A stretch of DNA of 64,000 nucleotides, from the sequence record OX638288, one strand, 5' to 3'. Of the stretch, positions 17,604 to 41,883 are shown one piece after another. The position numbers and the translations under genes are program-made. This DNA comes from Escherichia phage UP19. The notes under the pieces are model-generated. The model did not search any database. It saw nothing but the letters and a program-made list of their open reading frames with translations, and was not told the origin of the DNA. How positions within the stretch are numbered: the first letter of the stretch is position 1; every line of letters begins with the position of its first letter.

Positions 17604-17611
17604 TATTTATA
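17604..17611 (-). promoter_or_regulatory. Late promoter TATAAATA upstream of gene 13
   Basis: Plus-strand TATTTATA immediately after the wac terminator. Confidence 0.55.
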
Positions 17612-37765: not shown

Positions 37766-37990
37766 ATGAAAACTTATCAAGAATTTATTACAGAAGCTAA
37801 AAAACACGAAGACCAACTGCCGGTTGTTACAAAAACCTTTGACGGTACATTGGCCGATTTTAAAAAAGTCCCTAGTGATAAGCTCGCTAAATTGGCCGGG
37901 AGTATCGGTGAAAAAGATGGCAAGGTCACGTTTTCTGCTCAAGGTACAGCCAATCTTAAAAAACTTTTGAAAGCCGCTGGCGCAGAATAA
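37766..37990 (+). CDS. Internal-protein-like gene (MKTYQEFITE|AK), Lys-rich
   Basis: Capsid-targeting leader at the ATG 37766; the ORF-track start 37754 lacks an SD. Confidence 0.6.
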   Translation: MKTYQEFITEAKKHEDQLPVVTKTFDGTLADFKKVPSDKLAKLAGSIGEKDGKVTFSAQGTANLKKLLKAAGAE

Positions 37991-40085: not shown

Positions 40086-40159
40086 GGCCCTGTAGCTGGA
40101 CGGTCAAGCGAGCGACTCATAATCGCTGGATGGTGGTTCGATTCCACCCAGGGCCACCA
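40086..40159 (+). tRNA. tRNA with CAT anticodon (Met, or Ile if the first anticodon base is modified)
   Basis: Perfect 7-bp acceptor GGCCCTG/CAGGGCC; anticodon loop CTCATAA; T-arm GGTGG-TTCGATT-CCACC; encoded CCA. Confidence 0.8.
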
Positions 40160-40163
40160 ATTT

Positions 40164-40238
40164 GGATGTGTAGCTCAGCGGTAGAGCAGTTGACTGTTAA
40201 TCAATTGGTCCATGGTTCGAATCCATGCATGTCCGCCA
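40164..40238 (+). tRNA. tRNA-Asn (GTT)
   Basis: D-stem GCTC/GAGC; anticodon loop CTGTTAA; T-loop TTCGAAT; encoded CCA. Confidence 0.8.
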
Positions 40239-40242
40239 AATA

Positions 40243-40318
40243 CGAGGCATAGCTCAGAAGGAAGAGCAACGGTCTTCTAAACCGTAGGTCGTAGGTTCGA
40301 TCCCTACTGTCTCGACCA
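40243..40318 (+). tRNA. tRNA-Arg (TCT)
   Basis: Acceptor CGAGGCA/TGTCTCG; anticodon loop CTTCTAA; T-loop TTCGATC; encoded CCA. Confidence 0.8.
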
Positions 40319-40319
40319 A

Positions 40320-40490
40320 ACAAGAAACCGGGTCGCTACCGGTAAGTCGTCGGACTGAAGCTCCCTGAATAAGACCCGACTTTAAGGCGTACATGAGTTG
40401 ACCTCTTAAAGTCCCTTATCTCACAGCTGAAACGGCGCACAGAACACTTGCCTAGCAGGTGGAACCCCGACAAGGTTACCCTAGGTTAAA
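40320..40490 (+). ncRNA. Putative small stable RNA downstream of the tRNAs (T4 has small stable RNAs in its tRNA cluster)
   Basis: About 170 nt with no ORF, between the last tRNA and a strong terminator; GC-richer and palindrome-rich. Confidence 0.3.
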
Positions 40491-40518
40491 GGCCCTTCCG
40501 AAAGGTTGGGCCTTTTTT
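40491..40518 (+). terminator. Intrinsic terminator (copy 1 of a duplicated cassette)
   Basis: GGCCCTTCC-GAAA-GGTTGGGCC followed by TTTTTT. Confidence 0.7.
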
Positions 40519-40519
40519 G

Positions 40520-40527
40520 TATAAATA
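40520..40527 (+). promoter_or_regulatory. Late promoter TATAAATA
   Basis: Immediately after the terminator, 27 bp before the ATG at 40554. Confidence 0.55.
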
Positions 40528-40553
40528 TACAGTAAACTAACTTAGGAAATAAT

Positions 40554-41108
40554 ATGAAACTTTTAAAATATTTGAGTTGGATTCTGTTGGTCCCACTAGA
40601 TTTTATCTCTATGGTTCTAGCCGTTATCCTTGCGCCTTTTGTGGTTCCTTTTCATAATAAAAAGACTGGTAAATTGCCATACGGTTTTGATTGGATGATG
40701 ACATACGATAATCCAATTGACGGCGATAAAGGTCATATTAAACGTTGGGCTAAAATCAGGAAAATGCCTGGTGGTGTTTATCTCCAGAGAGTAGCTTGGC
40801 TATGGCGAAATAAAGCTTATAACTTTGCTTATCATAAACTAGGCCGTGATTGTAGCTCGGAATTCCATTATCGTGGTAATCCTGACGTAGAATCAGGTTC
40901 TCCTGATAAAGCTCACCATGGTTGGTTGTGGATGTGGAATGATGACGCCTGGGGTGTATTTGCTTCAGTTCCTTATCTTAAGGTCGGCGGAATCACATTT
41001 TACCTTCGCGTGTACTGTGGCTGGAAGCTTAAGAGTCTTTTGTCTCGTAAAATCCCTAAAGCTATGTTGGCCTTCCACGTGAACCCGTTCCGGTTCTACA
41101 AGAACTGA
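40554..41108 (+). CDS. Membrane-anchored hypothetical protein
   Basis: 184 aa; N-terminal transmembrane helix; flanked by identical terminator and late-promoter cassettes. Confidence 0.5.
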   Translation: MKLLKYLSWILLVPLDFISMVLAVILAPFVVPFHNKKTGKLPYGFDWMMTYDNPIDGDKGHIKRWAKIRKMPGGVYLQRVAWLWRNKAYNFAYHKLGRDCSSEFHYRGNPDVESGSPDKAHHGWLWMWNDDAWGVFASVPYLKVGGITFYLRVYCGWKLKSLLSRKIPKAMLAFHVNPFRFYKN

Positions 41109-41113
41109 TTTAC

Positions 41114-41140
41114 GGCCCTTCCGAAAGGTTGGGCCTTTTT
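41114..41140 (+). terminator. Intrinsic terminator (copy 2 of the cassette)
   Basis: Same GGCCCTTCCGAAAGGTTGGGCC plus T-run as at 40491. Confidence 0.7.
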
Positions 41141-41141
41141 G

Positions 41142-41149
41142 TATAAATA
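41142..41149 (+). promoter_or_regulatory. Late promoter TATAAATA
   Basis: Follows terminator copy 2; 29 bp before the ATG at 41178. Confidence 0.55.
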
Positions 41150-41177: not shown

Positions 41178-41795
41178 ATGAAAACTTACAATGAATTTTT
41201 GAACGAAAGCGTTCTGAATGAAGCCGGCGTGCGCATGACTAAAGATATGTGGCAAGCTGCTTATGATAAAATTTCCGGGACTAAAACCACTACCGAGTTC
41301 TTTAAAAACGTTTATGATATGTATGGTTTTGATACTAGTAGCCAGAAAGAATATTACAAAGCTTCCAAAGCTTTTAAAGATATCGTAGCCGGTGGCTCTA
41401 CTAAGCCTGCTAAACCAGCTAAAGCTCCTGTTTCTAAACCCGCGGCTCAGACCAAAGTTGCAGCACCGAAACCTACACCTAAAGCAGAGCCTGTAAAAGA
41501 AGCTCCTAAACCTAAAATCAAGTTCGACACCAGCACTATTGTTAAAAAATATAACCAGCTGGCTTCTTTAGTGTCGGAAATCGAATCCGAAACTAAACAA
41601 CTTGTTCGAGAATTCAATGTTCTTCGTAATGGTCAACACATTAACAACCTAGATACCCCGGACCTCTATCGTCTTTACCTGACGGTTGAAGGCCTTAAGT
41701 ATACCCAGCCTATGCACGAAGAAATTGATAACAAACTTCGTCAAGCCCGCCGCCTTGCAGGTGACGCCGCTCAGTTCGAAAAGACCCGTAAATAA
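41178..41795 (+). CDS. IPIII-like internal protein (leader MKTYNEFLNE|S, Lys/Pro/Ala-rich basic linker)
   Basis: 205 aa against 194 for T4 IPIII; capsid-targeting leader; KPAKPAKAPVSKPAA..PKPTPK histone-like tract; late promoter. Confidence 0.6.
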   Translation: MKTYNEFLNESVLNEAGVRMTKDMWQAAYDKISGTKTTTEFFKNVYDMYGFDTSSQKEYYKASKAFKDIVAGGSTKPAKPAKAPVSKPAAQTKVAAPKPTPKAEPVKEAPKPKIKFDTSTIVKKYNQLASLVSEIESETKQLVREFNVLRNGQHINNLDTPDLYRLYLTVEGLKYTQPMHEEIDNKLRQARRLAGDAAQFEKTRK

Positions 41796-41799
41796 TGAA

Positions 41800-41820
41800 A
41801 GGAGACTTCGGTCTCCTTTT
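41800..41820 (+). terminator. Intrinsic terminator
   Basis: AGGAGAC-TTCG-GTCTCCT followed by TTTT. Confidence 0.65.
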
Positions 41821-41854
41821 AGGGGGTTTAATCTAAAAATAATTTCACAAAGTT

Positions 41855-41883
41855 GTTTACACCTCCTTTAAACGTGATACTAT
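41855..41883 (+). promoter_or_regulatory. Early promoter module; spacer CCTCCTT is complementary to the downstream SD AAGGAG
   Basis: GTTTAC 41855-41860; TACTATAGACCTATCAA box. Confidence 0.6.

Follow-up and report, generated by a model that had tools for sequence, protein, structure and literature searches.

The question raised by this locus is why a single 37-bp unit, a stem-loop with a run of T joined to a promoter motif, stands both before and after one membrane-protein gene, and whether the two copies have contributed to the gain or loss of that gene. The DNA investigated is a stretch of 64,000 nt from Escherichia phage UP19 (sequence record OX638288), referred to here as the window. It belongs to a JS98-like Dhakavirus (Tevenvirinae), with identities over the repeat region of 97.6% to JS98 and 99.6% to EcWhh-1, and its + strand corresponds to the T4 strand running 57A, tRNA genes, e.8 and e. 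We propose, with a probability of roughly 80%, that the two repeats are copies of a single dispersed regulatory hairpin of T-even phages, here coupled to a late promoter of the T4 type, serving as portable recombination homology.

The repeat unit and its T4 counterpart

Repeat and pattern searches of the 64 kb detected two exact copies of GGCCCTTCCGAAAGGTTGGGCCTTTTT, comprising the 27-nt hairpin and T-run, at 40491-40517 and 41114-41140, with no mismatches between them and no chance matches in 100 shuffles. Copy 1 continues as T-G-TATAAATA to position 40527, giving six T and 37 nt in total, and copy 2 continues as G-TATAAATA to 41149, giving five T and 36 nt, a single T indel in the T-run being the sole difference between them. 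Homology is lost outside the unit edges, the 5' flanks reading ttaaa at copy 1 and tttac at copy 2 and the dissimilar 3' flanks tacagtaaac and gataagttaa, respectively. The copies lie 623 bp apart, start to start, and the interval contains one ATG-initiated open reading frame of 184 aa at 40554-41108, the DUF7338 gene. The repeat is real and non-random. The initial annotation, which had placed a 37-bp unit before and after the 184-aa gene, was right in coordinates, description and T-run indel, and the copies differ no more than it had read, being identical at 27 of 27 hairpin and T-run positions and at 9 promoter positions. The features of the locus are collected in Table 1.

Table 1. Features of the tRNA-end locus in the window, with the evidence for each
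Feature	Position	Strand	Evidence	Predicted role or remark
tRNA-Met, tRNA-Asn, tRNA-Arg cluster	40086..40318	+	ARAGORN; Rfam tRNA matches	
Homolog of T4 rnaD (species 2 stable RNA)	40319..40440	+	Alignment to T4 rnaD-rnaC-trailer region; T4 annotation	
Conserved 50-nt trailer before hairpin	40441..40490	+	Long invariant blocks in 4-way alignment	Found in Dhaka-, Tequatro- and Gaprivervirus
Hairpin copy 1 + T6	40491..40518	+	Stem-loop 40491-40512 with GAAA loop and 2x2 U.U internal loop; folding, covariation, alignment	Predicted intrinsic terminator of tRNA/rnaD unit; predicted left recombination joint
TATAAATA, late promoter 1	40520..40527	+	Exact match; Shine-Dalgarno AGGA 40544-40547, ATG 40554	Predicted promoter for DUF7338
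DUF7338 / phrog_2143 gene, 184 aa	40554..41108	+	Pfam, PHROG	Dispensable 'cargo', absent in IME08/CLB_P2
Hairpin copy 2 + T5	41114..41140	+	Stem-loop 41114-41135; folding, BLAST breakpoints at 41114 and 41140	Predicted terminator of DUF7338 transcript; predicted right recombination joint
TATAAATA, late promoter 2	41142..41149	+	Exact match; ATG 41178	Predicted promoter for orf135
orf135 homolog, 205 aa, phrog_2280	41178..41795	+	PHROG	Itself a swappable module
Different stem-loop, AAAGGAGAC-TTCG-GTCTCCTTT	41798-41819	+	UUCG-loop hairpin	Start of cassette 41798..41883
Early-type promoter upstream of e.8	TTTACA 41856 .. TACTAT 41883	+	TTTACA-N16-TACTAT after AAAGGAGAC-TTCG-GTCTCCTTT hairpin	

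In T4 this trailer and hairpin (AGCCCCGACCGAAAGGTTGGGGCT plus T-run) occur a single time, 3' of rnaC. The T4 hairpin is homologous to copy 1 in both position and sequence, each is preceded by the trailer, and both follow the pattern A-G(C/G)CCC..CC-GAAA-GG-TT-GGG(G/C)C-T and then a T-run. In contrast to the window, T4 possesses a single copy, its stem is fully paired, with GA in place of TT, and the hairpin is followed by TATCTAAG where the window has TATAAATA and then by the e.8 early promoter, with no gene between. Copy 1 is therefore the resident hairpin at the end of the tRNA region and is not peculiar to DUF7338.

The rnaD homolog is located directly 3' of tRNA-Arg, and the trailer blocks are invariant across four genera. 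The gap between rnaD and the trailer contains rnaC in T4, a protein-coding gene in VR20 and nothing in this phage, alignment with T4 revealing no rnaC homolog in the tRNA-end region of the window. At the gathering threshold Rfam detected three tRNAs only in the whole window, with no family for rnaD or the trailer, and a permissive Rfam scan of 40300-40560 returned only chance-level matches.

Predicted terminator, late promoter and encoded proteins

The predicted fold of the unit RNA, with a free energy of -15.3 to -17.8 kcal/mol and z-scores of -3.4 to -3.9, has a 5-bp G-C stem separated by a 2x2 U.U internal loop from a 2-bp C-G stem, which is capped by a GAAA loop; 5-6 U come after the hairpin. 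This is the layout of a rho-independent terminator, a G+C-rich stem-loop and then a U-run, in which the 2x2 U.U internal loop is atypical; a simple built-in terminator scan of the window did not flag the unit, and the T4-type hairpin copies of phage fPS-90 have been annotated as terminators by other groups, by prediction. Covariation was scored in eleven distinct hairpin variants from Dhaka-, Mosig-, Gapriver-, Tequatro- and RB43/KP15-type phages. Two-sided changes are observed across genera in 5 of the 10 hairpin pairs; pair 3/22, for instance, switches from G-C to C-G, and pair 2/23 is A-U instead of G-C in AnYang copy 2. None of 500 shuffles reached the covariation score of 0.289, the value in shuffles being 0.120, and register-shifted controls collapse. 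In this small sample, picked around a fixed CCGAAAGG core, the result is supportive rather than conclusive for a pairing kept by compensatory base changes. Thus, the terminator proposed in the initial annotation remains a prediction that agrees with hairpin stability and G+C content, the 5-6 U, homology to the hairpin ending the T4 tRNA/rnaD/rnaC region and the compensatory changes.

Hairpins that sequester the ribosome-binding site are found at T4 genes e, soc and 49. A similar role is not supported for this unit by folding of the read-through and late-start RNAs: late-start leaders fold no better than shuffles, and the only effect seen is that the U-run pairs weakly to the Shine-Dalgarno sequence of orf135.

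Terminator hairpins built on CC-GAAA-GG-TT-GGG(G) and followed by a U-run also occur commonly in many apparently unrelated viral contigs (IMG/VR, loci L099-L178). One 251-kb IMG/VR contig contains five, four of them within 3.5 kb and two of these 557 nt apart. The TT-opposite-TT mismatch is retained in many CC-GAAA-GG-core hairpins of IMG/VR contigs.

TATAAATA is the late-promoter motif of T4, where it works with gp55 and gp33 (PMC3014915). Promoters of this type have the motif at about -10, need no -35 element and start transcription a few nt further on, late and coupled to replication. In both units it is located 2 nt after the T-run and 26-28 nt before the respective ATG, with a Shine-Dalgarno sequence between, in agreement with the late promoter predicted initially. 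The motif occurs 16 times in the window, 7.5 being expected, and the only sigma-70-like site at either unit is a weak 9/12 match whose second hexamer abuts the DUF7338 ATG. In the phages with an empty site, IME08 and CLB_P2, promoter 2 and its leader likewise follow the single hairpin. An exact TATAAATA is also present ahead of DUF7338 in Gaprivervirus VR20 and Mosigvirus KMB38, and Karamvirus PG7 carries CATAAATA at this place; these motifs before DUF7338 in other genera and the internal-protein-like N-terminus of orf135, described below, lend indirect support to late expression. The further proposal of the initial annotation, that DUF7338 is expressed only from the late promoter and insulated from read-through, is plausible, although read-through from early or middle promoters of the tRNA region is possible and the stem contains two U.U mismatches.

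On the minus strand, with TATAAATA at 17604-17611, another terminator-like hairpin is combined with the late promoter as AAAAGGGC-TTCG-GCCCTTTTTTGC-TATAAATA, ahead of a Shine-Dalgarno sequence and ATG. This brings to 3, out of 16 in the window, the TATAAATA sites that stand directly behind a hairpin of this kind.

The 184-aa protein matches Pfam DUF7338 over residues 1-183 (E 4.6e-63, 212.6 bits against a cut-off of 27) and phrog_2143 (E 1e-79). Strongly hydrophobic 19-residue windows start only at residues 3-17, covering approximately residues 3-35, and the AlphaFold2 model places a helix at residues 9-33. The protein has no match in NCBIfam or PADLOC, a literature search found no mention of the family, and a BFVD structure search returned nothing informative, mostly unnamed or uncharacterised proteins and one labelled 'Envelope protein'. 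A few records name DUF7338 homologs 'holin', which are source labels only. Flanking repeats were rejected as a general trait of DUF7338: among 76 IMG/VR loci examined, direct repeats surround the gene at JS98-type loci only, and outside Dhaka- and Mosigvirus it has no direct-repeat flanks.

The N-terminus of the orf135 product, MKTYNEFLNESVLNE, is near identical to those of Ip8/Ip9-annotated genes (MKTYQEFIAESILNE for Ip9) and follows the motif MKTYxEF(I/L)xES(I/V)LNE, as in genes annotated as internal head proteins; it is also similar to MKTFKEF of T4 IPI, both likenesses being motif resemblances only. T-even internal head proteins have a conserved capsid targeting sequence in common (PMC3012670). 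Given the MKTY-x-EF-(I/L)-x-E N-terminus of T-even internal-protein annotations, orf135 therefore probably encodes a packaged and injected protein. DUF7338 does not have this N-terminal motif, whereas orf135 does. Internal-protein genes, like this locus, are diverse swappable genes with short conserved 5' sequences, and shuffling of the internal-protein locus is mentioned in PMC4122927; their conserved segment is coding, however, whereas the joint in the window is a non-coding terminator hairpin. The MKTY-x-EF-(I/L)-x-E start is also observed in window ORFs beginning at 37766, 37992, 49634 and 50419 (+), and the motif is common to the differing genes found at the orf135 site, g136c and g135c of fPS-90 and gp145 of VR20.

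Empty, filled and reordered sites in relatives

At the tRNA-end locus IME08 and CLB_P2 contain a single unit whose left flank is that of copy 1 (..ccctaggttaaa) and whose right flank is that of copy 2 (gataagttaattaacacaggaaacaataATG, orf135), so that a 623-bp presence/absence polymorphism with boundaries within the repeat distinguishes them from the window. Both genes, DUF7338 and then orf135, are present in the window, JS98, MN04 and AnYang, and neither is present in T4. The DUF7338/unit/orf135 junction is found in 11 records from 8 phages. The trailer/unit/orf135 junction is found in 13 records, most of them without DUF7338; among these, vB_EcoM_005 has DUF7338 downstream and IME341 has only a DUF7338 remnant. 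IME540 and JS10 carry DUF7338 alone, orf135 being missing (together with e.8 in JS10), and here DUF7338 is followed by the hairpin and then an early promoter. The reverse order, orf135 and then DUF7338 with two hairpin copies bracketing both, is observed in QL01 and vB_EcoM_005, and in Tequatrovirus fPS-90 the orf135 homolog is bracketed by two T4-type hairpin copies. An early promoter, TTTAC..N..TACTAT, comes after the second hairpin in JS10, IME540 and QL01, and the hairpin, not the promoter, is therefore the common joint.

Partial BLAST alignments to the window have their start at 41114 or their end at 41140, where hairpin copy 2 with its T-run begins and ends; the homology of JS10 also ends at 41140. 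One QL01 junction lies at the ATGAAA start and not at the hairpin. Comparison with related genomes, proposed initially as the check on this locus, thus revealed a single-copy empty site and a gene variably present between the same flanks, rather than one uniformly present with unrelated flanks. The initial suggestion that the repeats could mediate gain and loss is borne out, as far as aligned genomes can do so, by the empty sites and the mosaic breakpoints at 41114 and 41140, and this comparison indicates that recombination at the hairpin signal has led to gain, loss and reordering of the gene. T-run length was rejected as a clue to the direction of these events, T5, T6 and T7 being too variable.

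In IME341 (L170, ~1040-1135) the first 17 nt of DUF7338 (ATGAAACTTTTAAAATA) are fused to its last ~60 nt, just before the hairpin. This internal deletion is independent of the repeats and represents a second route of DUF7338 loss.

A second hairpin locus follows rI. In Mosigvirus, RB69, phiC120 and most relatives, the rI stop is followed by tttact, AGCCCCTTCCGAAAGGTTGGGGCT, a T-run and an early promoter, with one hairpin only. A minority differ, the KMB38 query being covered to at least 80% in 23 of 193 matching records, and in the members read, KMB38 and LF82-1, a 622-bp insertion is located at the post-rI hairpin in the order hairpin, GTATAAATA, a leader related to that of the window, DUF7338, tcaa, hairpin and resident early promoter. 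In LF82-1 the left copy has kept the resident flank tttact and the right copy has the cassette flank tcaa, the outcome predicted for a single crossover inside the hairpin. In KMB38 tcaa is found on both copies, which implies an extra, later conversion step. The hairpin-PL-DUF7338 unit has thus been placed at two unlinked resident hairpins, that of the tRNA end and that following rI. Mosigvirus and Dhakavirus DUF7338 are only ~74-75% identical, which implies that there was no recent direct transfer and that the movement was old or occurred through unsampled donors.

In VR5 and IME341 (L115, L141) a third Dhakavirus-type hairpin, TGGCCCTTCCGAAAGGTTGGGCCT plus T-run, is present outside the region of this window, at what was read by eye as a convergent gene junction.

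Recombination at the hairpin, its alternatives and its precedents

In the account that we favour, copy 1 would end the tRNA/rnaD unit and allow a late restart for DUF7338, and copy 2 would end the DUF7338 transcript and allow a late restart for orf135. The 27-37 nt unit would also provide a portable homology patch for general homologous recombination, within one genome or between co-infecting genomes, so that the genes between copies could be inserted, deleted or reordered, each keeping a terminator in front and its own promoter. The window arrangement could have arisen when a 'DUF7338-only' genome crossed over unequally with an 'orf135-only' genome, the reciprocal product being the T4-like arrangement with neither gene, or by integration of a hairpin-PL-DUF7338 circle at a resident hairpin-PL-orf135 site. 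The reverse event, deletion between copies, would yield the empty site and possibly a circle that is re-insertable at any cognate hairpin. We infer a recombination pathway at the hairpin, for which general homologous recombination is the simplest account.

Several observations weigh against this account: the stretch of homology measures no more than 27 nt in hairpin and T-run, or 36-37 nt if the promoter is counted, tcaa on both KMB38 copies needs the extra conversion, and the Mosigvirus and Dhakavirus DUF7338 versions are diverged, the gene having no direct repeats outside these two genera. Breakpoints at an inverted repeat and one unit at two unlinked hairpin sites would also follow if recombination were structure- or site-specific, the hairpin being cut as cruciform or ssDNA by a nuclease, e.g. 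endonuclease VII, or acting in an attC-like manner, with the gene a true mobile cassette, and the choice between 'homologous or site-specific' was left open by the authors who described the PeSL cassettes discussed below (PMC4122927). We consider this unlikely, as the cassette has no associated recombinase, its one ORF encoding a small protein with an N-terminal hydrophobic helix and of no recognised catalytic family, and as the KMB38 flank conversion, the QL01 ATGAAA junction and the IME341 internal deletion have the look of ordinary homology or micro-homology; the crossover point itself is unmappable within identical repeats. Similarly doubtful is the bolder proposal that the hairpin is a dedicated, structure-recognised recombination site, that units hop between unlinked hairpins and that DUF7338 function is tied to tRNA regions. 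If true, lytic T-even phages would possess an integron-like system without an integrase, with cognate hairpin sites at the tRNA-region end, the rI terminator and the third, convergent junction.

Two further explanations assign the repeats no part in the exchange itself. The presence or absence of DUF7338 might have been spread by co-conversion during SegB-type homing-endonuclease break repair in the adjoining tRNA cluster, the repeats being incidental. In AnYang and IME540 the tRNA cluster just upstream contains a gene for a homing endonuclease, and T4 SegB drives preferred inheritance of the tRNA region, a result for which PMC4122927 cites earlier work. No endonuclease gene is present at this site in the window, JS98 or MN04, however, and the hairpin-edge boundaries and the cassette at the Mosigvirus rI locus are not explained; we therefore regard co-conversion as improbable at the origin of the arrangement, which it could help to spread but does not create. 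Pure regulatory reuse, a terminator-promoter design selected twice by convergence or local duplication with no role in gain or loss, is the least probable reading and would be surprising. G+C-rich terminator hairpins with a CC-GAAA-GG core are common in unrelated viral contigs, and the minus-strand composite at 17604-17611 joins another hairpin to TATAAATA, both as such reuse would predict. It is nevertheless at odds with identity at 27 hairpin and T-run and 9 promoter positions, including two U.U positions that do not pair, and is contradicted by the precise empty site, the hairpin-edge breakpoints and the occurrence of all flanked-gene combinations in relatives.

Recombination between hairpin copies has a close precedent in the promoter-early and promoter-middle stem-loop cassettes (PeSL and PmSL) of T4-type phages (Arbiol et al. 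2010, PMC2839356; Comeau et al. 2014, PMC4122927), a model developed for RB49/phi1, PST/T4 and nt-1/KVP40 with mini-circles detected experimentally (PMC2839356, PMC4122927). Those cassettes occupy intergenic spaces of hyperplastic regions. As in the window, the promoter, with a Shine-Dalgarno sequence and ATG after it, comes immediately behind an intergenic stem-loop terminator, the ORFs flanked by copies vary among close relatives, and a sister phage has an 'empty' state with a single cassette. Presence and absence of the ORF is observed here both at the empty site of IME08 and CLB_P2 and between RB69 and LF82-1 at the rI locus. The mechanism proposed for PeSL/PmSL, recombination between cassettes and possibly via mini-circles, matches the account given here. 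Neither window copy carries the sigma-70-like early promoter of a PeSL, of the form TTGACA/TTTAC .. N17 .. TATAAT-like, both having TATAAATA: the window promoter is of the gp55-type late class, whereas that of PeSL is sigma-70-like early and that of PmSL MotA middle. The word 'late' is absent from PMC4122927, as is 'late promoter' from PMC2839356. The homology is also shorter, ~27-37 nt compared with ~100 nt for PeSL, and, unlike in PeSL, one and the same hairpin precedes a late promoter in some relatives and an early promoter in others. The locus is a late-promoter version of an already described T4-type gene-shuffling cassette, and the downstream interval 41798..41883 is a classical PeSL-like cassette that closes the module series. 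Lambdoid morons and integron cassettes resemble the window in placing a single accessory gene with its own promoter and/or terminator between resident genes, and integron cassettes further in having boundaries at an imperfect inverted repeat. In contrast to both, the window lacks an integrase and an attC/attI system, its phage is lytic, and a resident copy of the hairpin is required for insertion.

To a specialist in T4 genomics the locus would not be surprising, but the natural series is unusually complete, with all gene combinations, two loci and exact breakpoints. The PeSL idea is extended by the addition of late promoters and by showing the hairpin to be the point of exchange, since this one hairpin is found at unlinked loci and with either class of promoter, late or early. 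A ~30-nt terminator hairpin may thus serve as a universal joint for accessory-gene swapping in lytic T4-like phages, in which case an inserted gene would arrive insulated and with a promoter of the right temporal class. This predicts where insertions and deletions, whether engineered or natural, will appear in Dhakavirus and Mosigvirus phages used for therapy, and marks DUF7338 and the internal-protein-like orf135 as dispensable cargo of the host-adaptation type.

DUF7338 adjoins or is located inside tRNA clusters, always co-oriented, in several unrelated phage groups (neighbourhoods read at window 40554-41108 and at loci L025-L028, L036, L037-L058, L057 and L079-L084). It lies within an array of 15-16 tRNAs in Felixounavirus and between tRNA-Phe and tRNA-Met in Karamvirus, and further examples come from Dhaka/Gaprivervirus, RB43/KP15-type phages, a 183-kb S13-like contig and 237-kb jumbo contigs. 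The pattern might arise because tRNA clusters are hotspots of insertion, or because the gene is linked to them in function. In a plain count that ignores kinship, a tRNA is present within 1.5 kb at 30 of the 60 DUF7338 loci scanned.
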